A DNA stretch of 63,240 nucleotides, filler included, from Aduncisulcus paluster (Eukaryota), in NCBI GenBank assembly GCA_024181965.1. It is 13 parts of 13 records of this genome, joined end to end, with 100 filler letters (N's around TTAATTAATTAA, not from the genome) between each part and the next. Parts side by side here need not be neighbours in the genome. Positions count along the whole stretch, not along the records: positions 47,487 to 55,914 come from BQXS01011434.1; 12 more parts are not named here. One strand, given 5' to 3'. Both the position numbers and the translations under genes were made by a program. The notes under the pieces are model-generated. The model did not search any database. It saw only the letters and a program-made list of their open reading frames with translations, and was not told where the DNA came from. Shown here piece after piece: positions 5,358 to 56,614 of the stretch. Position 1 is the first letter of the stretch, and the number at the start of each line of letters is the position of its first letter.

Positions 5358-6004
5358 TTATTTCTTAGAGTCCAAGAATTGTTCGTGACAGGCACCACAG
5401 TAGAAGTGAGTCTTGTGCTCAGCAAGGAAAATACCAGCACCACAGTGAGGACACTCACGGTTGATACGTTTAACAGTGTCACCATCGACCTTGTAGTATT
5501 TAAGAACCCTAAGCTTGATCTTCCTCTTGGAAAGATCTCTCTTCTGCTTCTTTGGTCCAGTCTTGGTCTTCTTCTTACGCTTCTTCTTACCACCACGAAG
5601 ACGGAGAACAAGATGAAGGGTAGAATCCTTCATGATGTTGTAGTCACCGAGAGTACGGCCCTCATCAAGCTGCTTACCAGCGAAAATGAGACGTTGTTGC
5701 TCAGGAGGGATACCTTCCTTCTCCTGGATCTTAGCCTTAACGGAGTCGATAGAGTCACTCTGATCGACGTCAAGGGTGATGGTCTTACCAGTCAATGTAC
5801 GTACAAAGATCTAAAATGTAAAAAGAGAAAGAAATAAAACGAAAAAAAATAGAAGAGAAAAGTAAAACAATATTAAATATTGACAAATGAATTATAATCA
5901 ATAACAGATGAAAGTAAAAAACAAATGGAAACAAAAGGTGAATAAATGATACAAATATACAACAACAATAGTAAGAGGCTAAAAAAATAATTTCATACCT
6001 GCAT
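5358..6004 (-). CDS. RPS27A: Ubiquitin-40S ribosomal protein S27a (eS31) fusion; exons 6004-5999 and 5810-5358
   Basis: ATG CAG|GTATGA...TTTTAG|ATC TTT GTA gives [11 protein letters not shown] across a 188-nt intron (5811-5998). LRLRGG is followed by a Lys-rich segment and the CPHC...YCGAC Zn finger. Confidence 0.96.
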
Positions 6005-8773: not shown

Positions 8774-8873
8774 NNNNNNNNNNNNNNNNNNNNNNNNNNN
8801 NNNNNNNNNNNNNNNNNTTAATTAATTAANNNNNNNNNNNNNNNNNNNNNNNNNNNNNNNNNNNNNNNNNNNN
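8774..8873. other. Artificial contig linker, N-run + TTAATTAATTAA + N-run (first of 12 in the window)
   Basis: The same 12-mer, with stops in all six frames, sits inside every ~100-nt N block. Confidence 0.98.
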
Positions 8874-11800
8874 CCAACATGACACCAGTCCATTGATGCC
8901 CATTGCTCCCCTGAGTGTAACAGCCCCTCAGAATGGAAACCTTTCAAGAGTCCCAGTTGATCTACTACCTGAACTCATAAGAGACCCTCCTGCAGCTAAC
9001 CATATCCCTGCAGGTCCTCTGTTACCTCTGGCCTCTGCAGAACTCCCACTCCCAGTCTCTCAACCACAACCTGAACCGGTCATACCTCCCCCTAACTCTT
9101 CCGAAACTACACAGAGACCTGCCTCAACAACGACAGACTCACCGCAAGAGCTCGTTTCCTCGACAATCCCGAACAGGCCTGAACATGATAGGCATGGCGA
9201 TGGATATCTCAACAAAGTCATCCTCGAAGCCACTAATCAGCAATCTCTCGATGCCGCCTACAGAGCAGTATCACAAGCAGCTCGAGCCAGAACAGCATCC
9301 AAGCGCCCTCCTCGTCAAACTAAGACCAGTTCAACTGTCCCTCGACGGATCACTATGATCTCACAGATCCATATGGAAGACCTCCCAGAAAATCTATGGC
9401 AGATGATCCAACCCAGTGTTGAACACAAGAATATTCCTGCTATTAATGCTCTGCTACGGAAATATCATGCACTTGAGGCGAAAAAACACAGTCGAGCAAG
9501 GAAGTTCCACATCCAATGCTTTCGTGACCTAAAGAAGGCCATCTCTCTCCCCGGAGCTTCTGCCCCGCCAGATGTCCTAACACGATATGTTTCCCGTTAC
9601 TCTGGACCTGAATCTGACCCTCCTGAATTCCCAGCATGCACTGCAAGAACTGATCTATTCGCGTGTGAATCAATTAGTGTTATGGAAGTCCGGAATGCTC
9701 TCCAGAACATCACTCACTCTGCTGCTGGACCAGACAAAGTTACGTGGAGAGCCATGAAAACCATATCAGCTGCAACCTGGTGCTCACTATTCAATCGAGT
9801 CCTCGATTTGGCAATGATCCCCTCACAATGGAGAAATATCCAAGGCCACCTGATAGATAAGGATGCTGGAGAACCTGAACCACGGAATCCATCAGAGCTC
9901 AGCAGATGGCGACCACTCTTCATTGGATCCCATGCGATGAGACTCATGAGCACAGTCATCAACAGAAGATTGGTGCAATGGATTTCATATAACCATGTTA
10001 TCATGCCTTATCAAACAGGTTTCTTCCCTGAATATGGAACATTAACCAATGTCATGACGGCTAGGGAACTTATTGCTGATGGAGCAACAGGAATAGCCAT
10101 TGATTTATCAGATGCCTTTGGCTCTGTCCATCATGCTCTCTTGAGAGATGTTATCTCCAATACCTGCACAGGGAAAATTGCACACTTCCTCCTCCTCATA
10201 CTCAACCCTTCTGTGCAGCTTGAGGACGGAAGGAGAAGTATATCTATCGGAGTGCCCCAAGGCTCGCCCTTATCTCCAATGCTCTTCAACTTGTCACTTG
10301 ATCGAGCAATTCCCCCGGAAGTCAAGACACACTTGTTAGCCTATGCAGATGATATTCTTCTTCTGCACGAAGACCCCACCACTCTCCAGCGATTCCTCAC
10401 GTCACTATGCGATAGGTTGACACTCCATGGATTCAAAGTGAATGGTAACAAATGTTTCACAATCGGAAACAGTGTTGACTTATACATCAATGGTGATCGA
10501 GTAAGAGATGGAACAGAAAGAGATAAGTATCTTGGTATCTCCATCTCCACTGGCAGTGCAATGAGATACTCATCAAAGACGACGCTAGATCTTGCACTAG
10601 CAGAAGCGACAAGAATTCTCTCCCTTCCTCTCCTCTTGCCTCACTTCCTTGAAGCTGTTAAGACATACATTGCCCCATTATTCATATATATGGGATCACT
10701 AGGACTGGTTAGGAGAGACACATGTCACCACATTGATGTAATGATCAAAAACAAGCTTCGTAGTATCATGCAAATTCATGCCCATGTCCTTCCAGACTCG
10801 TTTCTCTATACTCCTCGTGAGCATGGAGGAATGGGGCTGGCCTCTGTAACGGACATGATCGATGTTGCACGTGCTGGATTGTTATTGCGTGCCTTGTCAT
10901 TTCCCAGCATCGTCCCAAGATTCCACCACTTCTTGGAGGGGATTGTTCACGAATGGAATGAAGGAGCGCTAAACATCACATGGACCGAACATGGAGACAT
11001 GCAGAGAAGACAATCTGACCAGACTATGAACAAACGATTAAGGAATCTCAACTGGTACGGGTGCTTATCTGCAATCAAACGCCTCCAACTGACGCTGCAC
11101 GAAGATGACTGCTTCAAACTCTGTGCTCCTCCATCTACTACCATCACTTTAGACAATCACAAGATGATAGCCAAAAGATATGGACTGATGAGAGCAGCAG
11201 AATGGGCATCATGCCCCTCTAAGGGAGTAAGTGCTCCATACTACATCAAACATCCTCTTTCGTCAATTCTCTTTAGAAGATCTTCCACTCAACAACACCT
11301 GATGATCCTGTTGCGTGCTCAGCAAGCTGCTGTTGCTGGGAGAAGACGCACAGGGGATAGATCATGCCCTCACTGCAGCTGTGATTTCGAATCCCAAACA
11401 CATGCACTGTCTTGTTGTCCCCAATTCATCCCACATTATCGGCGAAGACACCACCAAGTGCGGGATTCTGTCGCCAATTCGATCCGCCAGGTCCACCCAA
11501 CATGGGAAGTGGAAACTGAAGCCTGCTTCTCACCCACTCTCAGACCTGACATTCATGTCGTAAGATCTGATGGGCATGAAATCTGGATAGAGATTGGTAT
11601 CACTCGGGAAAACGCAATCCAAGAGCAGCTAGAAGCCATCTATCAAAAGAAAACACGTCATTATAATCATATTCCCTCTGATGAACTTCTGGTCATGATA
11701 TTTGGTCATGTGGGCATCTCAAGTGTCCAGCTTCAGGCTGAATTAATCGACAAACTTCAACTAAGCGAAAGGAAAGCAATCGATCTCCTGGCTGATGCTG

Positions 11801-11945
11801 GAATGATCTGCTTTTTCCAATCTACTCACATACTTCGAGTCAGGGAAGCTGCAAGACGAGGCCATAACGGGCCCTAAACCAATATTATGCTGACATGTCT
11901 GCCAGTAAATCCCTGCAATTTAAATATATCATAATAATAACAAAC
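8874..11945 (+). mobile_element. Non-LTR retrotransposon with restriction-like endonuclease (R2/NeSL/CRE/Genie-type). Single ORF open from the contig start to 11877.
   Basis: RT motifs AAGPDKV, WRPL, YQTGF, DLSDAFGSVHH, GVPQGSPLSPMLFN, LAYADD, KYLG; thumb GGMGL; CCHC knuckle CPHC..ESQTHALSCC; RHHQV; RPDI..IEIG nuclease motif. Short 3' UTR ending in (ATA)n-like sequence. Confidence 0.92.
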
Positions 11946-17659: not shown

Positions 17660-17760
17660 NNNNNNNNNNNNNNNNNNNNNNNNNNNNNNNNNNNNNNNNN
17701 NNNTTAATTAATTAANNNNNNNNNNNNNNNNNNNNNNNNNNNNNNNNNNNNNNNNNNNNG

Positions 17761-18747
17761 AAAGGGAACAAGGGAAGTAAGAAATGGCAGACTTTACAGC
17801 CATCTCCACATTTACACAGTGCTCAAGGACAGACGTGGATTAGCCGGTTGTTTGGTACGGTTGGACACTCCTCAGCCGGTGGTTCAGACGGCAAGAAACG
17901 GAAGAATAAGAGGAAAGGCCTTATGAGCTTTTTTGGCAGTTCTTCTTCTCGTCTGCATCCTATCTCTGGGTCTCACTCTGGCTCTTCTTCCTCTTCACAT
18001 TCTTCCTTTGGACGGCTTAAACATGATCCTCTTGGATCCCTCCATCATCTAAAAATGATTCCTTCTTCATACTCAACACATACACACAGTACATCTGTCA
18101 GTGGTGCTGCTTCTCCACACCTTTCCCAATTCCCCCATCTCACTCATTCAGCACATCATCACAACTATGCACATACTATCCATTCATCTGCAAGGATGCT
18201 AGGTTCTACTGCTATCAGTGCTGGTGCTGGTGCTGGTCCTAGTGGAGGTCCTAGTGGAGTTGCTAGTGGAGTTGCTAGTGCTGGGATCATGGGTTTTAGT
18301 AATCCAGGCTCTGCATCTACGTCTGGGTCTACTTCCCCTCTTTCCTCGACTACTGGTGATTATTCCACACGTTCTTTAAAGCAACAGTATGGTGAGCACG
18401 GAGAGTATGTACTGGCACGACGTGTGATCTTTCCCTCTGGCAAATGGATAGTTCTAAGTGATGCTACCGAGCTTACATACCAGCTGAACGGTGGAGGTAT
18501 GAACATTACAAGTTCCTTCAAGATGTGTGTGACTATTCTTTGTGCTGTTGAAATGTACACGGCTCCATCACAGAAATACTCGCCTGGAGGAGTGTATAAT
18601 GTTCCCAAGAGTCTCGATGAGTTAGTTGCAAGGCTACATTTGCCAATGGGTGGTATTGAATTGAGTCAGTTAACAGCTGAACAGACAAGGTTCTTGGGAA
18701 TTCCAACTCCTGAGGGGCCTTACAAACAGGATGACTATGCATACTGA
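17761..18747 (+). CDS. Divergent S-adenosylhomocysteine hydrolase-like protein, C-terminal part preceded by a long S/H/G-rich tract (5'-partial)
   Basis: The C-terminus GVYNVPKSLDELVARLHL..GIELSQLTAEQTRFLGIPTPEGPYKQDDYAY matches the SAHH tail. RRVIFPSGKWIVLS aligns with the DRYxFPDGKxIxLL segment. Confidence 0.75.
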   Translation, partial: KGNKGSKKWQTLQPSPHLHSAQGQTWISRLFGTVGHSSAGGSDGKKRKNKRKGLMSFFGSSSSRLHPISGSHSGSSSSSHSSFGRLKHDPLGSLHHLKMIPSSYSTHTHSTSVSGAASPHLSQFPHLTHSAHHHNYAHTIHSSARMLGSTAISAGAGAGPSGGPSGVASGVASAGIMGFSNPGSASTSGSTSPLSSTTGDYSTRSLKQQYGEHGEYVLARRVIFPSGKWIVLSDATELTYQLNGGGMNITSSFKMCVTILCAVEMYTAPSQKYSPGGVYNVPKSLDELVARLHLPMGGIELSQLTAEQTRFLGIPTPEGPYKQDDYAY

Positions 18748-20901
18748 TAAGACATCACTGATTATCTCTCTTATCTGTCTCTTGTCTGTCTCTCATCTCT
18801 AACTTCTTTTCTGCCTTTTTTTTCTGCTTCCTTTACTGTTTATTTTGATATTTATTAAGATCTAATCTAATTATTTACAATATATTTATTTATTTGATTT
18901 ATTATTTTTATTGTTTTCTTTTTTAACTTTTTCTAAATATTAACTCTTGTTTATAACAATATTAATAATAACAATTGATTTTCTAAAGATGTTATTTTAA
19001 ATTGATATAATATTGAGAAAGTCTTCCTTCCTTTTCTTATTAAGATATTCTAAAAATGATTGGTAACGATTGATCGAATACTTCGAATTTATATAATTTA
19101 TAATCATCAATCTGAATCGTATTAAATCTCTTATGAAATCTCTTTATGATGACGTTTTTAAGAGATGAGTGTAGGATAAGGATGTATTTCCCAATAAACT
19201 AATAAATTCCAATAAAACAATCGTTTATCACTGAGCTTTTTATCCAATCATATTTCAGTGAGGGCAGGTCAAGGGGGATGATGACTTAATAATTAAGTGT
19301 AGATAGTACACTCAGAACTGGGAGTATGTACTATAGAGTTGGTTTTTGACTCTGATGATCTCGGAAATAGCAATATAAGAACTGAATTGACAATCAATAA
19401 TGGTGTGATGTGAGAGCACTACTGAGCAGTTTAACTATTCTAAGCCAGAAGTTCATTGTTCACTGTTCACTGTCCACTGTTCACTCGGAAGTTCTGATCT
19501 TTGATGTCTGCCAGACAGATCACAGTGATCACTCAGTCAATTAGTTAAGTTAGGATATTAGTTAACTAGTTTCACTGGTCTACAAAAAAACGATATAATG
19601 TTTTTTTCATTAATTTTAGTGAATTTGAGTTCATGGCGACCCTATCTGGAACAAAACAAACGATGAAACATTATTACCGCGTTTGACCATTTGATGGATT
19701 GTTGCAGAAGATATTATCAAAATTATTTAATATAATATCTCAGAAAGAATTTTATAGAATTCTATAACTGTTCAGAATGTTCAGAATCGGTTCCAAACGC
19801 TTGAAACGTGATAGTCGAGCAAGAAAGGCATTCCATTGGATTAAGAAAGTGATAATATGATAATAAAAATATAATCAAATCAAACAAAGAAAATTCTTTT
19901 CAGAATACCACTTTATTGCAGCATTATCGTCCCAGAATCATCAAACATTATCGACAATCGGATTATACAACAACAATAACACCTGGCAACAATAATACCG
20001 TTAAGAATGACAACACAACATGGAATTGCAGATGAATCCAAGAAGAAGCTCGGACATCATGGTCGATATGGAGGATAAATCAACCATAGATCTAGAAATA
20101 GCAAATCATACTTTCAAGACCCAATCCAAACAATGGGCACAAAACAACAATAAAAACCACGCCAGAAAACATTTCAAACAAGATCTTGTCTCATAAAATG
20201 AAAATAAAAACGTCTGACTCAGCCTGGGCTCGAACAAAACCAGACAAAATTCTCATCACGATCCAGAGCATGCATGTTCTGCTCCACAAGACACGGCACC
20301 AAGTGGGAGTGGGGACATGTTTATTCATGGAGTTAGATTTTTAGTTCTGAATATTTCTTTTATCATCATTATCATCATTATCATCTTAGTATCATAAATC
20401 ATCTTTATTTATCCACAACAAGACAAGACGGGACAGAATAACAACAAAAAAATAAAGTTCAAAGTTCTTTGGAGTTGCATACGGTACGACTATAGGAACT
20501 CTATCATCATCTGCGGGTGATGCGACAGAAAACAGGGGGGACAACAAAACAGAATGGGGCAATCAATGTAGTATTCGAGATGGCAATGACAATGATGGGG
20601 AGGGAAGTACAACATACAATCAGTTAACAGCAACATTCATTCCAGTCACACGTGATACAATCAATATGACACAGTGAGGGGTTGGTTGTAGGTTGATTGT
20701 GGTTCGAGGATGTGCTGATAGTTCATCTTTGGAGTACGAGTTATTACAGATGGTATCACTTTTATATATGACATACAGATACACCACATTCCAAACAAGG
20801 ATTCCAAAGGCAAGGAGCACAGATCAGTGAAAAAGCGCAAATCTCAGATGTATCAGATGATCAGGATATGGCATTGGAGTTGGAGTTGGATTTGACTGCG
20901 G

Positions 20902-21112
20902 GGAAATGTCATATTCCATGAAGCATCAGGGGATTAGATTCGTAGCAGTATACAGACATATGTATACCATCATATTCCGAGTTCTTGATATTTTTGATTG
21001 TAAGCAAAAGCAAGTGAAAATGAAACAGAAAGGCAAGGATAAGGATAGAAATGAAATGGAAATATATCCATGTTATTGAATAGCATTGAAATCGTTCATA
21101 AATGTTCTTAAC
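20902..21112. repeat. Dispersed ~210 bp repeat, copy 1
   Basis: GGAAATGTCATATTCCATGAAGCATCAGGGGATTAGATTCGTAGCAG...AAATCGTTCATAAATGTT recurs nearly identically at 47832-48041. Both copies are preceded by GGAGTT hexamer repeats. Confidence 0.9.
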
Positions 21113-21367
21113 ACGTGAAATGGAACTATATCCAGTCCTGAGGGTTCTCCAAAAGCCTGAGATATCGAGAATAAACACCATGGCATGGAAATGAAAATAA
21201 AACATGTTTTTATCATTTACCAGCATTTAACTCGTTTATATGTGTTTTTTTAAATTTCCAATCTTATNNNNNNNNNNNNNNNNNNNNNNNNNNNNNNNNN
21301 NNNNNNNNNNNTTAATTAATTAANNNNNNNNNNNNNNNNNNNNNNNNNNNNNNNNNNNNNNNNNNNN

Positions 21368-44086: not shown

Positions 44087-46561
44087 GCTGCACCTTTAGT
44101 GATTGACAGGAAACCATCGGGGAAACTACGGCTTTGCTGTGGTTATGTAAGGCTAAACAAAATAACAATAGATGATGAATACCCTTTACCCCGACAAGAC
44201 ACCCTTTTCTCGGCCTTAGAAGGTCAAACAATCTTTGCAGCGTTAGATCTACGAAATGGTTACTATCACATAGAAGTTGAGGAAGCTACGAAGAAAATGA
44301 CGGCGTTCATTACACCGTTTGGATTATTCCAGTGGAATCGTATGCCTTTCGGACTTAAGACGGCTCCTGCACACTTTCAACGATGTATCAACGAAGTTTT
44401 AAAGGATTTGGTGCCCAAAACGTGCTTAATCTACTTAGACGATATTTTGGTTTTCGGTAATAACGAATTACAGTTTTTAGATAACTTAAAAAGTGTTTTG
44501 GAACGATTAGCGGAACATAACTTATGTCTAAATCTGGACAAATGTAAAATCGGGATGAGGAGAGTCCGTTATCTGGGTTTCAACATTTCATCACAAGGAA
44601 GAACAATTGACAAGAAGAGGTTGGAAACATTGAGGAAAATGAAGACCCCAGCAACACTGAAAGAAGTACAGAAGTTGATAGGAAATATCAATTTTCTCCG
44701 ACAATTTATCTTAGATTATTCCCGCGTATGTGAACCGATAACAAGATTAATGAAAGGAAAGGCACAGGAAATAACATGGGGAAGTGAACAAGATAGAGCC
44801 TGGAACACGATCCTTGACCGATTGGACCACCACCTGGTGCTGGAACATGCTTCACACGAAGGAAAATTTATCCTGAGAACGGATGCGTCTACATCAGGTA
44901 TTGGGGGAATTTTGTTACAAAGACAATCCTCAGGAAAAGAGAGACTCATAAATCTATTCAGTAAGAAATTCACGGAAACAGAAGCAAAATGGAGCACAAT
45001 CGAACAGGAGGCGTTTGGTGTTCTATTTGGGATACTCTCAAATGAATATTTCTTGTTGGGGAAAACATTTTTGGTTGAAACAGACCACAGAAACCTTAAA
45101 TACATTTTCACGAGTGAGGTACCAAAGTTAGTGAGGTGGAGAATGAAGTTATCACCATTTTCTTTTGAGGTAAAACATATTCCGGGAACCGAGAACTCAA
45201 CAGCCGATTTTCTCTCGAGAATTAAAACATCGGACGAAGATCACACACCGAATAGTATCCTTGTACACAGTGTGGTACAAAAGGACACGTATCGAGAAAG
45301 AGAGGAGATATTGAAGAAAATACACGAAGAACTAGGACATGCCTCAGAGAATCTAATGATTAGGGTACTCAAGGAACGGGGTTTTACGTGGAGATCGATG
45401 CATGTACAAGCCCGAGATTTATGTCGGAAATGTCTGCGTTGTCAGAAAGTACACAAGGGGAGACCACTCCCAGTGGGGCACCATTTGAAGGCTTCGACCG
45501 TTTTTGAATGTGTATCAATTGATACGGTTGGTCCTTTACCAGTGGACAGCAACGGATTTAAACACCTTCTCGTGGCAATCGATGACTTCTCGAGGTTCGT
45601 CTTAATTCACCCTTTACGTTCTTTGATGGCGACGGAAGTGGCCAGAGTTTTGTTCACATATATTTTTTCCATCCACGGACCTCCCTCGGCGATTAGATCA
45701 GATGGTGGTTTTGTGAACGAAACTGTGAGAGAATTATGCAAATTATGCTCAATCGACCTGATTACAACTCTCCCATATAACCATGAGGAGAACGGGTTAG
45801 TAGAAAGGTTGAACCGAGAAATACGTCGAATATCAAGAATTTATTTTATGGACTCGGATTCTCCAGACTATATGCTGGATTCTGCCGCATTGGTGTCAGC
45901 CCTAAACACCAGGGTACACTCTTCAACGGGGTTTTCCCCGTATTCCGCGATTTTCGGGACAAAGAGAAGGCTGACAACTCTCCCTCCAAATCCCCACCCG
46001 ACCTGTACTCTAACAAAAGAGAAAATTGTCGAGTTAGATGCACGGTTGAGGAGGATAAATACTATTTTGGCAGATAAGCAGGAAAAGACATATCAAAAAC
46101 AAGATCGGAAGATAGATGAAACACTGAGCTTCAAAGTGAACGAACTTGTTTTACTCGTACCAGCGAAAACACCAAGGAAACACGTGCCGGTGGTAAAGGG
46201 ACCGTTCGAGATAAAATCGTTTCTTGGTGATAGATACGTTCTTCAAACCACAGACGGAGGAAGTTCGTTTACTGTGCCCCACCGTCGATTAAGAAAATAT
46301 ACTCGGGGAGAAGAATCAGATGAAGAGCTGAAGAGAATTTCAGCGAAGGATGAAAACGAGTATTTGGTCGAGAAGATCCTTTCGAAGAGATTCGGAGGAA
46401 AGAAACCTATCGAATTTAAGGTAAGATGGGCTGGATACGGAGAGGAAGAAGACTCCTGGCTCCGCTGGAAGGAGGTAAAAGACCTCGAAGCACTCGAAAC
46501 CTTTCTAAGGGAACAGCCGAGGCTGCGAGAAAGGATAGAGTCGAAACAAATGAAGTTATAA
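44087..46561 (+). mobile_element. Ty3/Gypsy LTR retrotransposon pol: RT, RNase H, integrase, chromodomain (5'-partial)
   Basis: LDLRNGYYHI, KMTAFITPFG, RMPFGLKTAP, YLDD; RNase H TDAS, E, ETDH, ADFLSR; integrase H..GH...CLRCQ, IDTVGP, SDGG, ENGLVER; chromodomain EYLVEKIL..EFKVRWAGYGEEEDSW. Confidence 0.96.
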
Positions 46562-47371: not shown

Positions 47372-47576
47372 TTTTGAACGTTGAACNNNNNNNNNNNNNN
47401 NNNNNNNNNNNNNNNNNNNNNNNNNNNNNNTTAATTAATTAANNNNNNNNNNNNNNNNNNNNNNNNNNNNNNNNNNNNNNNNNNNNCTCTAACTGATTTT
47501 GAGAACTTTGATTTCTGAGCAAGAGAAAATAAATCTGAAAACCAAAAAAAATCAATTCGTTTGTTCTTTTCAGGTG

Positions 47577-47758
47577 TTATTTCTTGATTCCTAATAATTC
47601 AACATCAAATATGAGAGTGGAATCAGGTGGAATAGAATCGCCAGCTCCACGGCCCGTGGCATGGACACCATAACCATAATCAGGATCGATTTGATTACAA
47701 TCGTGGCTCTTTCACCAACACTTAATGTAAGAAAGGCTTCATCCCAACCACTGATAAT
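47577..47758 (-). pseudogene. FKBP-type peptidyl-prolyl isomerase pseudogene fragment (C-terminal half)
   Basis: IISGWDEAFLTLSVGERATIVI then, after a 5-nt insertion, DPDYGYG..RGAGDSIPPDSTLIFDVELLGIKK*. The N-terminal half is replaced by GGAGTT repeats and the dispersed repeat. Confidence 0.85.
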
Positions 47759-47831
47759 CAGGAATTGGCATTGGATATAGAGTTGGAGTTGGAATTGGAG
47801 TTGGAGCGGGAGTTGGAGTTGGGGAGGAGGA

Positions 47832-48041
47832 GGAAATGTCATGTTCCATGAAGCATCAGGGGATTAGATTCGTAGCAGTATACAGACATATGTATACCAT
47901 CGTATTCCGAGTTCTTGATATTTTTGATTGTAAGCAAAAGCAAGTGAAAATAAACAGAAAAGCAAGGATAAGGATAGAAATGAAAAGCAGATATATCTAT
48001 ATTATTGAATAGCATTGAAATCGTTCATAAATGTTTTTAAC
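47832..48041. repeat. Dispersed ~210 bp repeat, copy 2
   Basis: Near-identical to 20902-21112, which is on a different contig. Confidence 0.9.
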
Positions 48042-48349
48042 TTTCCTATCGTGTCTATTGAAGGGTTGTATATTTGGTCATCTATTTTTCCTTGTGTTAA
48101 TAGCAAATTGTATGTTTACTATATATCATAGCTTTTGTTAAATGTACATTAAGAAATATTTTAATTGGATTCATTCAATTATATTCACTATATTGTGCTG
48201 TGTGGTCGTTTCTTGTTCGTTTTGTTCGTTTTGTTAGTTTTGTCTTTGTTTCTCGGACTATTCTCCTTGAAATTGGCAATTATTCTGTTTGTTCACAAAT
48301 ACTATTATTATTCTGCTTGTTTTTATTTTTTAGATAATATTCTATTCAA

Positions 48350-49455
48350 ATGAGTTCATCCACAGATTCTGTTATTCAAACTGTAGAACCTGTGTTTGTT
48401 CATAAAGGACGGTGGTATTGTTGTCCAATCTCCCTCGATGCCCCCAATATTAAGAGTGCGGAGTTTCCAACTATCAAAGCAATAGATGGAACAAGGAAGG
48501 AAGTGATAGATGGTACGATCAGAGTTCTAACGCACAAAATATAATGAAAGGAGGAGGTAATAGCGGACATTTTACCCATATTTCCATTCCTTTCTTTTCA
48601 TCTTCCCCAATGAAAGGGGCGTATATCTGTCTCCATCCAGGAATGTATTCTTCAACTCCATCGCATCTTATCTTCACTCTCACATCTTCAAAGGGTGATA
48701 AAACATCCAAAAAATACGAATTTCCTGGATTCTATCCTTATTGTTGGTATTTCCTTCCTGTTGATCTCCCTGATGTTGTTCTGTGTGAGATTACAGGGAA
48801 AGGAAGAAAGGAAGAGTGTTTTAGAATCGAATCCCTTATTTTCATTAGTAGAGAAGAAATCTCTGAAGAAATCAAATCTCGTGAAGCCAGAGAGAAACTA
48901 TGGTCTGAAGCTCCAGTTGTGAAACCAGAGTTTGTTAAGGAAGGAGATGAAGAATCTGAAGGTAGAGCTTCTATACCCATTCTACGTGATGATCCAAAGC
49001 TTGTAGATCCTTCATTCTCAATGGTTAAGTGCAAGAATGATGCGTATTGTAAGGAATCTAAGTATTATGATCGGAGTTCAAAAGCACAAAGAATGTTAAA
49101 AGGAGAAGACAAAGTATGGTTATCCCATATTTCCATCCCTTTCCCATCACCTAATCCCATGAAAGGTGCTTATATTTGTGTGAGGAAGGATCATAGTTCA
49201 CCCTCTCTTCTCTTCACTTTCACTGATTGTGATGGTAAGAAGACATCCAAGAAGTATGAATTTACATGTCCTAAACATCAGTATCAATGGCACTTCCTTC
49301 CTATTGATTTGGATAATATCGTATTGTGTGAGATTGAAGGGAAAGGAAGGTGGTGTAATAAGAATAGTCGATATTTCTGGATTTTCTCCCTAGTTTTTAC
49401 CCTGCCAGAGGAAACTATTGCAGCTGAACGATTATCTCTACTTCCATGGAAATAA
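48350..49455 (+). pseudogene. Lineage-specific two-repeat protein ('HISIPF..SPMKGAYIC' family), frameshifted near 48500
   Basis: Two ~150-aa units share V.P.FV, AQ.M.KG, HISIPF, PMKGAYIC, FT.T...G.KTSKKYEF and W.FLP.DL..VLCEI.GKG. A 1-nt deletion near AAGGAAGTGATAGATGG would join ORF 48350 to ORF 48544 via DRWYDQSSNAQNIMKG. Confidence 0.7.
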
Positions 49456-50799
49456 TTCAAGGATAATGATATTGTCTGTAAATGCTATTCTTTCATGAAG
49501 GAGATCCTGCATTTCGATGCCATTTCTCAGATTGCGTAGAGTGGGGGACTTTGTTCAATTTTCTATATCTCTTAAAATAACTCACTGCTATTGCTCCAAA
49601 GGTGATGGATATGCTTGCCCAATGTGATGCTGAACATGTAACAACTCATCATCGAAATTCAAATTTTCCAATATTTGCATGTTCCTGTCGGGCATTGAAA
49701 AAACTAACCCACATTTATAACATTGTTACTCAATATATACCTGCTTTATGGAATATGCATGCAGTTTGAAATGGTTTGTTCTATTTTTAGAATTTCTATT
49801 TTTAGAATTCAGATTTTTGAATTGGATTGTTTTGCCTGAAAAAAACATTAATAGGTAGAATTACAAAGTTTTTTTTGGGTTACTTGTCTGTATTTTCTCT
49901 TTGATCCATGTTCAACATGTTGAGTCGGTTAAATTCAAGTTTTTCGTGATTTTTTCTCATCAGATAATTAGAACATTAGAATACCATCAAGGTATTTTTT
50001 CTCTTTTGGTGTCAGGATTTGCTTCTCACATCTATATCCTCTTCATGGAGTTTTCTCTTCAAACAGTAACTTTGCCTCTGTATTACCCTTTCAAAAGAAT
50101 TCATGTTGCCTCAAATGTTCTCCTCTTCCTCTAATTTGATTCCAATAGAGCGATCTTCCTTCTATATTGAAGACCATGAATAAAATCGGTTAGAATCCAA
50201 CTTGGATCGTATCATCTATCTGAAGAAGCAATGAATTGTTCAAGAATGAGATTATCATCTCAAGGTTTTCAAAAAGGTGTATTATTTTCAACTGTAGTGG
50301 TGTAAGGTTTTAAAACTGGTTTGACCTCTATACCATAAAAGGCCTATTCCAGATATGGTGACCCTTACACCACTACACAACAACAAGATCAGTTTTCATA
50401 GCATCATGAATCATGATGTCATCACGCATGTTAGCTGAGCTAATAGCTCTATTTTACTCGCCTTTTGTCCTTTCAGATAAATTATCTGAGATAATCACTA
50501 AATTGAAGAGATCACCAATATCTTGAGTTTATTTAATTTGGTGGACTCAACTTCAATCAAAACGAAGAAATTGTTTTAATTTCCCGCAAAAACGTCACAT
50601 TCAAATTCAGTAACAAGTATTTTCATGCTCCACTAGTGGAAATTGGAGCTGAACATCTATATTTAGAAATTCTATTTTTAGAACACACATTTTTAAATCT
50701 GTTTAAAATTGGGTAAATCTCGGAAAATATTGATAAATAGCAGTGTTATTGTTTGTCTTTGACTTCCAATTCTTAAAGACACAACTCAGAAGCCACATA

Positions 50800-50945
50800 T
50801 TCTCATGATACGTATAGGAAGATGAAGAGATAGGAATGAAGATATGGGTAAATGCCACTATTAAACTCTTCTTTCATTGTACCTTGTACTCTAGAACTCT
50901 GACCGTACTCTTCACCGAATTTCCTGGATTCATCATTGCAATAAA
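50800..50945 (-). pseudogene. Decayed fragment of the same two-repeat family, in inverted orientation
   Basis: The reverse complement GTACGGTCAGAGTTCTAGAGTACAAGGTACAATGAAAGAAGAGTTTAATAGTGGCATTTACCCATATCTTCATTCC resembles 48513-48610. Confidence 0.7.
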
Positions 50946-51088
50946 CAAATCATCACACAAAAACAATATTTCTTCCTTCCTCACATCTAACATTTAAAGG
51001 ATATTTCATCGATGTGTATCCTATTTTTAGAAATTCTATTCTAATAGAATTGAAACTTACTAACTCAATAACATTTATCACGTAAACA

Positions 51089-53797
51089 TCATTTTTGAAC
51101 AGAAATATAAGCCAATCTTTGTCTTATCAGTCTTGATTCTTCCAATGACAAACAACATGATCGTTTAAAGCTTCGCCACACAGCTTCTCTCGCTGTTTCA
51201 TTCAAACATCCCAAGACACATCGTATCACAGCACATGATGCAGCAATAATCTTTGTATCCGAGTGGCTATCATGCTTGGATTCATGTGAACATCCATACT
51301 TGAGAATCGAACATTGAGACACCATTAGTAGAGCACACATAGTCGCTATCAACTTCTCTCCATACTTCGCATTACAAATAGAGATGGAAAAAGAGAGTAG
51401 AGGAAGCAAAGATATACTCAAAAAACAGAATGGCCGCTTCTTAGTGGATGAAGATCGCTTGAGTTCCTCAAGATGATTCAGAACAGGAGTAGGAGCGAAC
51501 GAGTGGGAATAGTATTGCCTCAAACAAGGAGTTCTAGACACCGAACATCCACATGGACACTGTGATACGTCAGATAAATAATATCCAGCCTGCTTGCCAT
51601 CAGACTTTCCAGATTCTTTTGATATCGATTTAGGAAATAACATCGAAGCTGGTCTTTCCCCCAAAGATTTGTCACGAATACCACCAATACTGACCCAAAG
51701 TTGTTCATTATCAATCAAATCTAAAAATATCGATTCGGACACTGACTTACGTCCAATTCCAAAAATAGATCCGAAATCGAATGATGACAGTTTCTCCATC
51801 TTTGAAGACACAGAAGGCGAACGAAAATCAACCTTCCCTGAGGAAATATGATGTGATAGTTGACACTGAATGGATTGAATGCGACCAAGGATGACCGATT
51901 CGGATTGAAAAATGTTGACGATCTCACTTCCAGCTTTTGAGATTTTTTCGTGAGATTCCTTGTTCTTGTGAGTTTCCCCTTCATCCCTCACCCATTCGGG
52001 TATTCCATCAAACTGCAGTAAACAGAAACAACACTCAACTTGAATGATATTCTCACAAACAGATAATAATAAATCACACGACGAGGATGAATAGTGAGTT
52101 TGAACAACACTAGAAGTTGCAATTGAGGAGCTAAAATCTTCATCTTTCTGTTGACAATATACAGAATCAGAGGCAGTTCCACACAGTGATCCACAGGTTA
52201 CCCACTTCAGACACGTTTGACAATACATCACAGCCAACGACAACTGAGAAAGGATAGACTGACGTTTATCATGGAGAGAAATGAGGTCAAACAAACTCAA
52301 CGCATATATTTGATCACGTTCTGCCTTGAGAATTGTCGTATCTACCGATATTCTTTCGTTAATTTGTTCCCATTCATGCATCCACTTTCTTTTGTTGACA
52401 ACATACGTCACAGTTTCTCTAAAACATGCTTTTGAACAAGCAGAACACCCCTTTAACACGAAAGATAACAAACCTTGGAAGATATTATCGGAGCTTGAGG
52501 ATGGGGAACACATGCATATGGGATATTTAATCTTCGCTAACACCCGTAAAAGAGCTTGTTGATCCACCATTGAACGCTGAGTCTTTTTCTGACGAAGAAT
52601 TGCAGATAGAGAGAGAGCACCAGGAACAACAGATTGAAACAAATCGCTCGTTCCATCTCCAAGAATCATTCGCGAATCTGGAATTTCTTCATTGCTTCTT
52701 AGTATAATTCTAAAAATAGAATCTGAGAGAGATGATAAACACAATCTTCTCAAGGGAAATGAATCACACAATAGGCATCTGGAAATAAGAGAGAGAAAAA
52801 CAGAAGTTGACGAGGCCAAGAGTTTATCAATGATAGTAACACCCGACTTTGATGATTTCTGTTGTTGTATTATTGATGGAGTCGAATTGACTGAGCTTGA
52901 AGGACAAATACTACTTAGACAGACAGAGCAGAGTCGGATGGCACAAGCTCGTTCAGAAACATCCCTTTGCAACAAAATAGCAATCAAATTCATTAAAAAA
53001 GAAGAGTTACCCTCAATTCTCCTTGTGAACAATTGAATCGGAGAAAATACAAGGGATTTTTCGTGTGGGAATGGGCAACAAAGGATCAAGAGAGAGGTTG
53101 TAGGATCAGGAGAATGTAAAAACAATAAAATGAAGAGAAATACAAACTTTTCCATAATATTAGACGGATAAGAGTCTGAAAAATTGGCTGAAATGGTTGG
53201 ATAATAGGTAAAACGGATAGGTTCGCTGATTGGTTTAGAAGAAGAACTCTTATTGGAAGCCTTTTTCACTGTAAGACCCGAATAATCCTCAAAATCATCA
53301 GATTCAGAATCAAAATACTCGAAAGAGATTGATTTTCGTGAGCCAATTTCAGATTCATCGCAGGAAGATTCATGGGATTCTTTGTAAGGATCATCTTCAC
53401 ACGATTCATTATTATTATTAATTTGGATTAAAAAATCACCAGAAATAACCGAAAGAAATGTGTGAAGAAGAGAGGATATATCAGTAATTGAAACTACGAA
53501 GAGGTGAATTAAGGAAAAACAAAGTTGTTGGTCGATCCAATCTTGGAGAAAAATATAACACATCAATGAAAGGATACTTGGAAACAAGGAAGAAGATTGG
53601 ATATTCGAGAGTTGAATAACATCAAGCAATACCGTTACTCTCTGGTTGTCTTTATGGTAAACTGAAAGGGACAAATCTTCATAAAGATTTGATACCAATT
53701 GTTCTTCACCTTCTTTTGAAAGCAATTCATCGGAGGAATTCTTTGACAGAGTATGTTTTTGCTGGATTAGTTGACTCGGAGAATAATGATAAGACAT
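51089..53797 (-). CDS. Large hypothetical Ser/Leu/Cys-rich alpha-helical (possibly HEAT/ARM) protein
   Basis: Uninterrupted ORF of more than 900 codons with no recognisable motif. The start is uncertain (ATG near 53797, MSYHYSP; ORF track starts at 53896). Confidence 0.6.
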   Translation of the reverse strand: MSYHYSPSQLIQQKHTLSKNSSDELLSKEGEEQLVSNLYEDLSLSVYHKDNQRVTVLLDVIQLSNIQSSSLFPSILSLMCYIFLQDWIDQQLCFSLIHLFVVSITDISSLLHTFLSVISGDFLIQINNNNESCEDDPYKESHESSCDESEIGSRKSISFEYFDSESDDFEDYSGLTVKKASNKSSSSKPISEPIRFTYYPTISANFSDSYPSNIMEKFVFLFILLFLHSPDPTTSLLILCCPFPHEKSLVFSPIQLFTRRIEGNSSFLMNLIAILLQRDVSERACAIRLCSVCLSSICPSSSVNSTPSIIQQQKSSKSGVTIIDKLLASSTSVFLSLISRCLLCDSFPLRRLCLSSLSDSIFRIILRSNEEIPDSRMILGDGTSDLFQSVVPGALSLSAILRQKKTQRSMVDQQALLRVLAKIKYPICMCSPSSSSDNIFQGLLSFVLKGCSACSKACFRETVTYVVNKRKWMHEWEQINERISVDTTILKAERDQIYALSLFDLISLHDKRQSILSQLSLAVMYCQTCLKWVTCGSLCGTASDSVYCQQKDEDFSSSIATSSVVQTHYSSSSCDLLLSVCENIIQVECCFCLLQFDGIPEWVRDEGETHKNKESHEKISKAGSEIVNIFQSESVILGRIQSIQCQLSHHISSGKVDFRSPSVSSKMEKLSSFDFGSIFGIGRKSVSESIFLDLIDNEQLWVSIGGIRDKSLGERPASMLFPKSISKESGKSDGKQAGYYLSDVSQCPCGCSVSRTPCLRQYYSHSFAPTPVLNHLEELKRSSSTKKRPFCFLSISLLPLLSFSISICNAKYGEKLIATMCALLMVSQCSILKYGCSHESKHDSHSDTKIIAASCAVIRCVLGCLNETAREAVWRSFKRSCCLSLEESRLIRQRLAYISVQK

Positions 53798-54128
53798 TCC
53801 TAACAATATGTTTGTGATATTTTTACAGCAATATATTTCAATGGAAACAAAAATTAATCGAATCATCGAAAGAGTAGGAAGATTGGTGGAAAACAATATT
53901 GGGAGTTAAGATTCAAATATTTTCTAGTATTAGTTGAATAATATCATTTAACATCACCCTAAAATGAGTTTTACTCATTTTTCACGTCCTATAATATGAT
54001 GTATTTGCAGCAAAGACGATTTTTTATTTATTTTTGCTGGAAGTTGAAAATAACAAAGAAGACATGTCAAAAGTATTAAAATAGAGATAAAATAAAAACA
54101 ATTGGCTAAATTTATTGAATAATTAACA

Positions 54129-55340
54129 TTACTCCATCTTACGGGGCTTCTTTCTCTCAACAATCTTATCGAGGATACGAGCAGAGTCCTTAAACCTAGT
54201 GATCATCATCATAGAAGCAATGATGTAAGGTTTCCACTGAGCTTCCTTGTACATGGCAACACGATGGCGGTCAAAGACAGAAGCAGCGAATTCACCATGC
54301 TTGCAAGAAACACCGGTGATATCAGCAGGGAGACAGTGCATGGCGAGACAGTCAGGAGTGTCAGCACCAGGCTTAGTGAGCTTGGCAAGTTCTTCAGTGT
54401 ATTCCCAATCCATATGCTTGGCATTCTCAGCAAGAGCTTTCTTTTCGAGCTCATCCATCTGAGGGGTACCATCAGCAAATCCAGCATCGATGAGGGCAGC
54501 CTTCTCGATCATGACAGAGGCAGGGGCCCAGGACTTGACGTAAGCGACATCAGCATCCTTGAGTCCAGGCTCCATAGAAGAGTGGACAGAGAGCTTTCCA
54601 CCGCCAATCTCAGCCTGCTTCTTGGCCTCTTCCATAACGTGGGGAAGGAGGTCGTAACCCTCAGGGTAACAGAGGTGAACATCAGCTCCGAATCTGGGTA
54701 ACAAGGCGATGATTCCTTGAGGAACAGAAAGAGGCTTACCGTATGAAGGACTGTAACCCCATGACATGCAGATCTTCTTTCCCTTAAGATTCTCAACGCC
54801 ACCGAAATGGTCGACGAGGTGAGCAAGATCACTCATAGATTGAGTAGGATGGTCCTCATCACATTGAAGGTTAACGATAGAGGGACGTTGGGGGAGAACT
54901 CCTTCTTTGAATCCAGCGTCAACGGACTTGGCAACTTCAACCTGGTAGGTGTGACCTTTACCAACAAATTTATCGTCACGGATACCAATGACCTCAGTAA
55001 GGAAGGAGATCATGTTGGAGGTTTCACGGACGGTTTCTCCATGGGCAATCTGAGATTTTTTCTCATCAAGATCAGACACAGTGAGACCAAGGAGAGTAGC
55101 GGCCTTTGCAAAAGAGAAACGGGTACGAGTGGAGTTGTCACGGAATTGAGACACAGCAAGAGCACCGGAGAAACAGGAACAGTCAATGTTCTCTTTGTAG
55201 AGGATCTTAAGAGCCTCAGCGATCTCAAGAGTAGCATGGATCTCGTCTTGAGTTAAATCCCAGGTACGGAGCCAATCTTTGTCGTAAAGATCAATTTTAC
55301 GAGCTCTAAGAGTTTCAATAATCTTCTTAACCTTCTCCAT
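54129..55340 (-). CDS. ygeW: Knotted carbamoyltransferase, YgeW family (bacterial type)
   Basis: FRDNSTRTRFSF, SQIAHGETVRET, IGIRDD, NLQCDEDHPTQSMSD, WGYSPSYGKPLSVPQG, YVKSWAP, MHCLPADITGVSCKHGE and KPYIIASM are YgeW-specific extensions of the STRT/HPTQ/HCLP carbamoyltransferase motifs. Confidence 0.92.
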   Translation of the reverse strand: MEKVKKIIETLRARKIDLYDKDWLRTWDLTQDEIHATLEIAEALKILYKENIDCSCFSGALAVSQFRDNSTRTRFSFAKAATLLGLTVSDLDEKKSQIAHGETVRETSNMISFLTEVIGIRDDKFVGKGHTYQVEVAKSVDAGFKEGVLPQRPSIVNLQCDEDHPTQSMSDLAHLVDHFGGVENLKGKKICMSWGYSPSYGKPLSVPQGIIALLPRFGADVHLCYPEGYDLLPHVMEEAKKQAEIGGGKLSVHSSMEPGLKDADVAYVKSWAPASVMIEKAALIDAGFADGTPQMDELEKKALAENAKHMDWEYTEELAKLTKPGADTPDCLAMHCLPADITGVSCKHGEFAASVFDRHRVAMYKEAQWKPYIIASMMMITRFKDSARILDKIVERKKPRKME

Positions 55341-55672
55341 TGTAACAAAAACTGGAATAATTTTGTAGACTTTCTATGAATACTGCTTCATCACAGTCAA
55401 TGGAAACCTTTTCAAACCAATAACAAATTCAAAACAATAATATGATATAAATTCATCCAGCTTTACGTCAATATTTTTCTCATTTTCGTCACAAGAACCC
55501 GACAGGGGTTCAAACTCAAAATAAAGGAAAAATAAGGTGGCATAAAGATATTTTATTGTTTGGAATATCAGTGACGCAAAATAAATATAAAAAAATTCTC
55601 AAAAACAAAAGATATCATCTCCAATGATTATCAAGGGAAGATGGCTCATCAACCTCGGGATAATGGACAAAA

Positions 55673-55914
55673 TTAGAAAGGTTTGAAGGTCCATCCGCAT
55701 GCTAGACCAGCGGCAAAACCAAGAACGACAAGGGCAATCATTAAAATGATGGTTGAGGGAGTAATAGTTTTCACAACAATGGGTTGAGAATGACTATGAG
55801 GCTTTTCTTGTGGAATGGAGTCCGAGACAGGGACAGGTTTAATTTGAGAAGATCTTCCAGACATTGGTATTTCGTATACGGGCAAAAAAAGATCTGTCAC
55901 AAATCGAAACAACA
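55673..55914 (-). CDS. C-terminal fragment of a protein with a C-terminal transmembrane anchor (5'-partial)
   Basis: Frame is open from the contig end; hydrophobic TIILMIALVVLGFAAGLACGW lies just before the stop. Confidence 0.5.
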
Positions 55915-56614
55915 NNNNNNNNNNNNNNNNNNNNNNNNNNNNNNNNNNNNNNNNNNNNTTAATTAATTAANNNNNNNNNNNNNNNNNNNNNNNNNNNNNN
56001 NNNNNNNNNNNNNNGAGAAAAGACAAAAACAAGCCAGGCGTCTATACAGAACCGTCAGAGAAGCAAAATAAAGCCTGAGATTTCGATTCATTAATAAAAT
56101 AGAAAATGTATATTTAAACAAAAAAATAATTAATATTATTCGGTAATTATAAAGCAAAAAGCATTTCGATAAATTGGCAATCCGAGATTTTAATTTAAGA
56201 CAAAGAATAGTATTAAAGGAATATAACAAAAAAATTATTCAAAATTTTGACATTAATTGGACTGGACATCAAAGTTAGATAAGACATATTGGTATTCGAT
56301 ACACAAACAAAAGAATAAATATTAAATGAAAAATGTTTGGAAACAAAACAAAACAAACAAAAAATGTTGGGTGGGTTTCCAATTCAAAAAGAAGAAAAAC
56401 ATAATAATAATAATAGCGAGCCATAAATCCGGAAGAAAGAAGAAGAATACACAAGTCAACAAAAGTCAGAAATGAGCTAAAAATAGTTATTGGGCTAAAA
56501 ATAGAGCTGAGAGGATCAGAGACGAAGGGTGAAGATATGGATGTATGCTATAAAATAATTTGTTTGTCTGAGGAATAGTCAAAATTCAAATATAAATTGT
56601 CAAATCTGCCCAAA

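Follow-up and report, generated by a model that had tools for sequence, protein, structure and literature searches.

A YgeW-type carbamoyltransferase gene of bacterial ancestry in Aduncisulcus paluster and other metamonads, with a likely role as a second source of carbamoyl phosphate and ATP

The anaerobic uric acid pathway was reconstituted in 2025 in two studies, and the available text of both (PMC12507026; bioRxiv 10.1101/2025.04.24.650524) describes a route in which XdhD converts urate to 2,8-dioxopurine, YgfK carries out a further reduction, SsnA together with HyuA opens the two rings to form 2,3-diureidopropionate, YgeW phosphorolyses one ureido group to form carbamoyl phosphate, YgeY hydrolyses the other ureido group, and YgeX converts diaminopropionate to pyruvate. 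In the case of the E. coli enzyme, the same texts report cleavage of diureidopropionate by YgeW and formation of ATP, the reaction being run either in the presence of phosphate and HyuA or in the presence of ADP and the carbamate kinase YqeA. Here, we describe a homologue encoded by the anaerobic protist Aduncisulcus paluster, which is found within a 63,240-nucleotide stretch of DNA from assembly GCA_024181965.1 (this whole stretch is referred to below as the window), and we consider whether it belongs to the eukaryotic host and what it might contribute to host metabolism.

Two further systems are useful comparators. The arginine deiminase pathway of metamonads, consisting of arginine deiminase (ADI), a catabolic ornithine carbamoyltransferase (OTC), and carbamate kinase, employs the same logic, in that a phosphorolytic transcarbamylase provides carbamoyl phosphate that is then used to form ATP. 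The available text of two papers reports carbamate kinase, OTC, and ADI in Carpediemonas, Monocercomonoides, and other metamonads (PMC5052871; PMC10703272), and in the published text at hand ADI and OTC are likewise thought to have been acquired laterally by the metamonad ancestor. Since Carpediemonas and Monocercomonoides possess both OTC and YgeW, the latter would represent an extra input into this system and not a replacement for OTC. The other comparator is the bacterial stand-alone module of YgeW, YgeY, and carbamate kinase. It lacks the ring-opening and redox enzymes that act upstream, and the same may hold for metamonads, but in bacteria the companions are encoded side by side, whereas those of the protist, should they exist, are not linked to YgeW.

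The A. paluster open reading frame (ORF) encodes a YgeW-type carbamoyltransferase and not an enzyme of the OTC or aspartate carbamoyltransferase type. It scores 566.4 bits with the YgeW equivalog model NF005538 (cut-off 453) and 554 bits with the YgeW equivalog model TIGR03316 (cut-off 500), whereas the best OTC model, TIGR00658, gives only 106.9 bits against a cut-off of 280.85, far below the level at which an OTC is called, and none of the ornithine, aspartate, N-acetylornithine, and putrescine carbamoyltransferase models exceeds 107 bits, with cut-offs ranging from 237 to 660. It is in this subfamily membership, with OTC models at no more than 107 bits against cut-offs of at least 280, that the protein differs from the transcarbamylase of the metamonad arginine deiminase pathway. 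Pfam recognizes two generic transcarbamylase domains. Among solved structures, residues 2 to 398 align with residues 6 to 395 of E. coli YgeW (PDB 3q98, E-value 3.8e-144) and residues 1 to 402 with residues 1 to 396 of Enterococcus faecalis YgeW (PDB 2yfk, 5.9e-143), and the next match is an OTC with an E-value of 3.6e-14. The original prediction, which was made from the sequence alone, had described an intact reading frame with the YgeW motif set that was distinct from ordinary OTC and aspartate carbamoyltransferase, and on both points the models and the alignment described below agree with it.

The identity to the solved YgeW structures is 55 to 57%, and the level of identity to these knotted structures suggests that the A. 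paluster protein would also contain the trefoil knot. In an 11-sequence alignment extending from E. coli to the metamonads, where identity to E. coli YgeW is 56%, the motifs STRTR, HGET, IRDD, HPTQ, KSW, and HCLP are all kept, residues S70-R74, H164-Q167, K269-W271, and H335-P338 are invariant, as is Y196-V206, which forms the YSPSYGKPLSV loop, and the loops of the second-substrate domain are unchanged. It is at the position of this YSPSYGKPLSV-type segment of YgeW that OTC has its ornithine-binding DxxxSMG loop. The likeness of the A. paluster protein to E. coli YgeW (b2870) and to the E. faecalis enzyme therefore includes the length class, full colinearity, and every catalytic motif. The A. 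paluster gene differs from both in being eukaryotic and solitary, with no ygeWXY-hyuA-yqeA genes within its 8.4-kb contig, in its clade-specific substitutions, in an insertion before HCLP, and in its host-type codon usage, and its activity is a predicted one.

The draft genome of A. paluster consists of 29.4 Mb in 25,863 contigs with an N50 of 4.6 kb and a GC content of 39.1%; the culture contained food bacteria, and decontamination removed only contigs that were more than 95% identical to a non-metamonad entry (PMC9933649). With such a lenient filter and bacteria present in the culture, contamination was a live possibility beforehand. In addition, the window was found to be composed of artificially joined contigs, so that an argument for host ownership built on linkage across the concatenated pieces fails, and ownership had to be shown otherwise. 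The 100%-identical database protein, P0001, is titled 'Putative carbamoyltransferase YgeW [Aduncisulcus paluster]'. Among 7997 scored candidates, the best non-self matches include proteins of Dysnectes brevis, Blattamonas nauphoetae, Monocercomonoides exilis, Carpediemonas membranifera, and three isolates listed as 'Eukaryota sp.', which are 60 to 62% identical and are encoded on contigs of 269 kb to 3.9 Mb, and bacterial proteins rank next, at 58 to 62% identity. A YgeW gene is also present in Barthelona sp. PCE, on a 2.1-Mb contig, and in Kipferlia bialata, on a 64-kb contig. In total, YgeW is found in at least ten named metamonads including A. paluster, and eight of the nine other named homologues are on contigs of 64 kb to 3.9 Mb.

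A careful tree of 53 rows (IQ-TREE, LG+C20+F+G4) places nine named metamonads and four further rows, mostly transcript-sized, in one clade with an ultrafast bootstrap (UFBoot) of 95 and a Shimodaira-Hasegawa-like approximate likelihood ratio test (SH-aLRT) value of 97, within which the Preaxostyla are grouped at 100/100 and the remaining metamonad lineages at 86/70. A quick tree of 60 rows, to which Kipferlia and seven named bacteria were added and from which rep_P0162 was dropped (branch length 6.4, odd composition), contains a 14-row metamonad clade with an SH-aLRT of 97, and the relationship (Aduncisulcus,(P0002,(Dysnectes,Kipferlia))) is recovered there at 97/99/90. A FastTree overview was made with 133 rows of 370 to 430 aa and 13 distant representatives. 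The metamonad clade is nested among bacterial sequences, with inner branching that is compatible with organismal relationships and with deeper nodes that are poorly resolved. In the careful tree, its sister is the pair P0009/P0011 (96/93), whose closest counterpart among prokaryote species representatives reaches no more than 72% identity; with named bacteria added in the quick tree, the sister position becomes a polytomy of P0009/P0011 and a Planctomycetota metagenome-assembled genome. The pair P0009/P0011, and also P0106, a metagenomic sequence considered below, may represent additional anaerobic eukaryotes or the nearest bacterial relatives still living.

Individual sequence characters also mark the metamonad proteins. 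A four-residue insertion immediately before HCLP is fornicate-specific, occurring in Aduncisulcus, Dysnectes, Kipferlia, and P0002 but in no other of the 123 rows that could be measured, while the spacing is standard in 117 of the 123 and one residue shorter in Carpediemonas and Barthelona. The arginine of an LRTW motif is found in all 14 clade rows, in both sister rows, and in none of the 106 other bacterial rows, and clade-specific substitutions are found at LRTW, DEDHPTQ, and IRDDK, which are positions beside the catalytic motifs. Furthermore, two 2013 sequencing runs of another study contain four pieces of the coding sequence (CDS) and its 3' end at 99 to 100% identity. These results support the conclusion that the YgeW gene belongs to the eukaryotic host and is of bacterial ancestry. 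The original prediction of a lateral transfer of a bacterial-type gene into a eukaryote, for which it had proposed a phylogeny as a check, is thus borne out by the single metamonad clade among bacterial YgeW sequences and by the host-type codons described below, and it can be widened, because the transfer is not special to A. paluster: no fewer than ten named metamonads share it, and it seems to be old.

The codon usage of the YgeW gene is that of a highly expressed host gene. The correlation of relative synonymous codon usage is 0.88 with the ubiquitin-RPS27a ORF, which is found on another contig and was used as the reference for a highly expressed host gene, versus 0.45 with a pool of 14 other ORFs, and this bears out the resemblance in codon style that had been noted originally. 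The GC content at third codon positions is 0.476 for YgeW, 0.513 for ubiquitin-RPS27a, and 0.328 for the 14-ORF pool, and the codons TAT, ATA, CTA, CTG, ACG, GCG, CCG, and GGG are unused in YgeW. The ubiquitin-RPS27a ORF itself opens at 'IFVRTL' directly after the sequence '...ttttag' (window positions 5358-5840, minus strand), which makes it probable that an intron follows ATG-CAG and that the first two codons are on a mini-exon.

The sequencing evidence comes from four runs of guessed kind, present as assembled Logan contigs only. In run X2, which is from the same sample and is only guessed to be RNA, the contigs over the CDS have a summed depth of 7e4 to 3.5e5 versus 102.6 for the contig over the neighbouring ORF, and in run X1, which is guessed to be DNA and of which 12,338 contig records were placed on the window, the CDS depth is 2253 versus 1300 to 1314 for the flanks, a factor of approximately 1.7. 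Contig depth is a poor measure of expression, and the contrast between X2 and X1 is a weak hint of high YgeW expression. In X1 contigs over the CDS region, variant letters are present at 55074, 55304, 55306, and 55308, and taken together the 1.7-fold depth, the breaks of the contigs at the CDS borders (54159-55352), and these variants suggest that there is a second near-identical copy or an allele.

The deposited A. paluster protein P0001 is longer than the ORF, at 459 aa, because its gene model joins a small upstream ORF to YgeW by way of a predicted GT..AG intron at approximately 55353-55710, which adds a 56-residue N-terminal extension containing a hydrophobic stretch (region 55353-55864). 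This extension is absent from the nine other named metamonad homologues, of which eight are 399 to 413 aa in length. The ninth, the Kipferlia model P0284, is 720 aa and begins with an unrelated, low-complexity N-terminus of 304 residues, with the YgeW part starting from an internal methionine; the P0284 N-terminus is spurious and is in this respect similar to the A. paluster extension. A contig from run X2 is colinear with the genome from 55323 to 55691, that is, across the predicted acceptor site, and no joint at the predicted intron is present among 15 joints considered from a set with 56 more. A 459-aa membrane or organelle form was rejected as the main product, on account of the homologues without the extension and of the X2 contig that runs through the acceptor. 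The extension is probably an annotation artefact and not part of the enzyme, and the 403-aa ORF was taken as the product. This ORF starts where the bacterial proteins start, which makes a cytosolic location the simplest inference. At the other end of the gene, an AATAAA hexamer is located approximately 13 to 18 nt past the TAA stop (54111-54128, minus strand), and a contig from run X3 ends 13 nt past the stop, which fits a very short 3' untranslated region, although contigs do not reveal where a transcript ends, its strand, or its level.

In bacteria, YgeW is seldom found by itself. Among 39 bacterial YgeW loci whose 10-kb flanks are complete, one or more pathway partners are present in 37 and none in two. 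YgeY, present in 36 of the 39, is the tightest companion of YgeW, followed by carbamate kinase (18), an XdhD-like protein (17), and YgeX, HyuA, YgfK, and SsnA (15 each), and two loci contain YgeY and carbamate kinase, one of them also with YgeX, without any ring-opening or redox enzyme. Natural fusions of YgeW with an M20 (YgeY-type) amidase, with an amidohydrolase of the HyuA/SsnA type, and with a YgfK-like Fe-S protein are found as well, and a more distant YgeW-like domain (38% identity) is fused to an amino-acid (carbamate) kinase; the fusion proteins are P0122, P0285, P0287, P0131, P0288, P0289, P0291, and P0292. Such fusions provide Rosetta-stone support for functional links between YgeW and these partners. 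In A. paluster, when 11 proteins of the E. coli cluster were used as tblastn queries, YgeW gave the only significant match and no partner was detected anywhere in the 13 pieces of the window, the 8428-base contig included, all non-YgeW matches having E-values of 0.069 or higher. Together with the finding that the three other ORFs of the contig have no Pfam domain, this agrees with the earlier statement that the gene has no operon neighbours. Clustering of pathway genes would not be expected in a eukaryote.

One important consideration is whether the contig might derive from a food bacterium or be a bacterial/protist chimera. The presence of bacteria in the culture, the filter that acted only above 95% identity, and an assembly of 25,863 contigs with an N50 of 4.6 kb (PMC9933649) would all permit this, and the Logan contigs break at the CDS borders. 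However, the closest relatives of the protein are metamonad proteins encoded on megabase contigs and not bacterial proteins, the fornicate-specific insertion is present, the codon bias is of host type, the neighbours include an orphan and nothing bacterial, a high-copy repeat is found on the same contig, and the same sequence occurs in runs of another study. We therefore regard contamination as very unlikely, with almost no weight left to it. A different possibility is that YgeW is a host gene whose product acts on another ureido compound or works biosynthetically, as in the carbamoylation of a diamino acid, with no tie to purine breakdown. Approximately 40% of residues differ from those of every bacterial YgeW, the clade-specific changes at LRTW, DEDHPTQ, and IRDDK are beside the catalytic motifs, and related transcarbamylases that carbamoylate 2,3-diaminopropionate are known from the available text of PMC4581275. 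The ORF nevertheless passes equivalog-curated YgeW models, and the second-substrate loops do not vary between E. coli and the metamonads. The strong codon adaptation would also be more in keeping with an enzyme of catabolism or energy supply that carries a high flux than with a rare biosynthetic enzyme. This explanation appears unlikely, though not negligible.

At the other extreme, A. paluster might possess the whole reductive urate/2,8-dioxopurine pathway, leading from urate and other purines to pyruvate, ammonia, and ATP. The company that YgeW keeps in bacteria would suggest it, since 37 of the 39 loci include a partner and the ring-opening and redox enzymes are each found in 15 to 17 of them, and so would the existence of YgeW fusions with M20, amidohydrolase, and YgfK-like domains. 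The available text of a preprint also reports purine crystals in an anaerobic metamonad termite symbiont (bioRxiv 10.1101/2022.01.11.475817). Such crystals make conceivable a purine store that would need to be broken down without oxygen. Against the whole pathway, none of the partners was seen in the approximately 0.2% of the genome that was searched, and the upstream part of the route calls for molybdenum-cofactor enzymes and large Fe-S flavoenzymes, which are not known to be common in metamonads. In addition, M. exilis, which has an orthologue of YgeW, is described in the available text of its 2019 genome paper as being without enzymes of purine and pyrimidine catabolism, and a 2025 commentary, in the text available, calls the anaerobic urate pathway restricted to anaerobic bacteria (PMC12990295). 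We judge the whole pathway to be quite improbable, and a truncated lower branch, of the kind present in some bacteria, seems more likely in metamonads than the whole. On a broader view, oxymonads, Carpediemonas-like fornicates, barthelonids, and Skoliomonas-type isolates may run at least the lower, ATP-yielding branch, where the old and codon-adapted YgeW would feed purine-derived carbamoyl phosphate to carbamate kinase, with the ureido acids coming from prey or from their own purine stores; this is put forward tentatively, as a possibility that we think has less than even support.

The explanation that we favour as a whole, with somewhat better than even confidence, is that YgeW is a nuclear gene of its free-living host, an old bacterial acquisition that has been inherited vertically, and that its cytosolic product feeds carbamate kinase. 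According to this proposal, a bacterial YgeW gene would have entered the metamonads before the Preaxostyla split from the Fornicata and the Barthelona/Skoliomonas-type lineages, and since that entry it would have been passed on vertically. The protein would be cytosolic, without a targeting extension, and would carry out phosphorolysis of a ureido group of 2,3-diureidopropionate, or of a close ureido-amino-acid analogue, to form carbamoyl phosphate. Carbamate kinase of the arginine deiminase pathway may then convert carbamoyl phosphate into ATP, ammonia, and CO2. The substrate may be provided by upstream enzymes of the protist itself or by compounds freed from digested bacteria. A second source of carbamoyl phosphate and ATP is the likely role of metamonad YgeW, by analogy with the bacterial enzyme, and the corresponding suggestion in the original prediction, that the protist may make carbamoyl phosphate and, through carbamate kinase, ATP from purine-derived ureido compounds, is consistent with what the available text of the two 2025 studies describes.

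Several observations weigh against this explanation. No partner enzyme was found, in a 63-kb window that amounts to approximately 0.2% of the 29.4-Mb assembly, and in the available text of the literature examined carbamate kinase is documented for other metamonads and not for A. paluster itself. The description of M. exilis predates the discovery of the pathway, yet it argues against recognizable upstream enzymes, or a complete pathway, in that organism. The two 2025 studies disagree, in their available text, on whether YgeW removes the 2- or the 3-ureido group. With respect to phylogeny, the bootstrap of the careful tree, at a correlation of 0.987, had yet to settle completely, the branches of Barthelona and Carpediemonas are long, and P0106, which represents a cluster of six sequences on contigs of up to 11.7 kb from metagenome assemblies, falls inside the metamonad clade. 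With respect to the sequencing data, no run is recorded as RNA, the kinds of all four being guessed, and because the Logan contigs are interrupted at the two ends of the CDS, linkage of the gene to its flanks rests mainly on the deposited assembly.

An identical 100-nt block, N44-TTAATTAATTAA-N44, which is an artificial six-frame stop spacer between unlinked contigs, is present at 12 sites and cuts the window into 13 pieces, and three N20 gaps are found inside pieces, at 2779, 6718, and 23944. Because the pieces were joined artificially, gene order and neighbourhood across the linkers are void, and nothing outside the real contig is physically linked to YgeW. The genes of recognizably eukaryotic type, namely MCM5, a Ty3/gypsy polyprotein with chromodomain, OTU1, protein kinases, SET, PPPDE, and ubiquitin-RPS27a, are on other pieces; the Ty3/gypsy-type polyprotein (reverse transcriptase, RNase H, integrase, and chromodomain) is located at 44099-46561 on the plus strand of its own contig, and a second reverse-transcriptase ORF is located at 8893-11877 on the plus strand, also on its own contig. 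The host-type sequence on the YgeW contig is confined to the high-copy repeat, one dispersed repeat, and orphan ORFs. The original prediction had placed YgeW among host-type sequence on its contig, and this part stands for the repeats; the eukaryotic genes of the window are elsewhere among the 13 joined contigs. In run X1, the depth of the repeat region exceeds that of the single-copy part by a factor of up to 1000, and the region contains an internal self-repeat of 67% identity between 48514-48806 and 49066-49349. The 925-aa serine-rich ORF that adjoins YgeW has no homologue among 8000 scored candidates other than itself (P0296, from the same 8428-base contig), and it says only that this flank is not recognizably bacterial. 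The coordinates of these features are given in Table 1.

Table 1. Position of YgeW and of the other features discussed, numbered along the window
Feature	Position	Strand	Basis or remark
YgeW-family knotted carbamoyltransferase CDS, 403 aa, single exon	54129..55340	-	ATG to TAA, uninterrupted
Small upstream ORF, 63 aa, hydrophobic stretch	55673..55864	-	P0001 compared with ORF
Contig carrying YgeW, 8428 bases	47487..55914	.	linkers on both sides; same deposited contig size for P0001 and P0296
Ser-rich ORF, 925 aa, orphan, adjoins YgeW	51089..53866	-	no Pfam domain
High-copy host repeat region	47487..50000	.	X1 summed depth up to 1.4e6 versus approximately 1300 in single-copy part
ORF, 303 aa, no Pfam domain	48544-49455		inside repeat region
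Dispersed repeat	47809-48041	.	92% over 237 nt versus 20876-21112 (piece 17760-21267)
Ubiquitin-RPS27a ORF, other contig, codon reference for highly expressed host gene	5358..5810	-	peptide motifs
Artificial linker	8774-8873	.	one of 12 identical blocks
Artificial linker	47387..47486	.	one of 12 identical blocks
Artificial linker	55915..56014	.	one of 12 identical blocks

Public records already label the protein as YgeW in both A. paluster and C. membranifera. In the literature searched, no paper mentions YgeW or its pathway in any eukaryote, in agreement with the original prediction, which knew of no such description, and papers that name both YgeW and a protist draw no link between them. YgeW is also unmentioned in the main texts of metamonad genome and metabolism papers; their supplements, which were outside the search, may list the gene or its partners. 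What is described here is a known enzyme family in a domain of life that is new to it, where its gene is old, conserved, and adapted in codon usage. Lateral gain of bacterial catabolic enzymes is common in metamonads, and the finding fits this established pattern and breaks none.

The presence of a conserved and apparently highly expressed YgeW in ten metamonads, which include Monocercomonoides, the model eukaryote without mitochondria, extends one enzyme of the pathway to eukaryotes. If the proposed role is true, YgeW would provide a second source of carbamoyl phosphate beside arginine, which would be a real gain for organisms that depend on substrate-level phosphorylation only, and the view that purine catabolism is absent from these protists would need revision. 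It would then represent an unrecognized route of substrate-level phosphorylation in eukaryotes whose mitochondria are reduced or absent.

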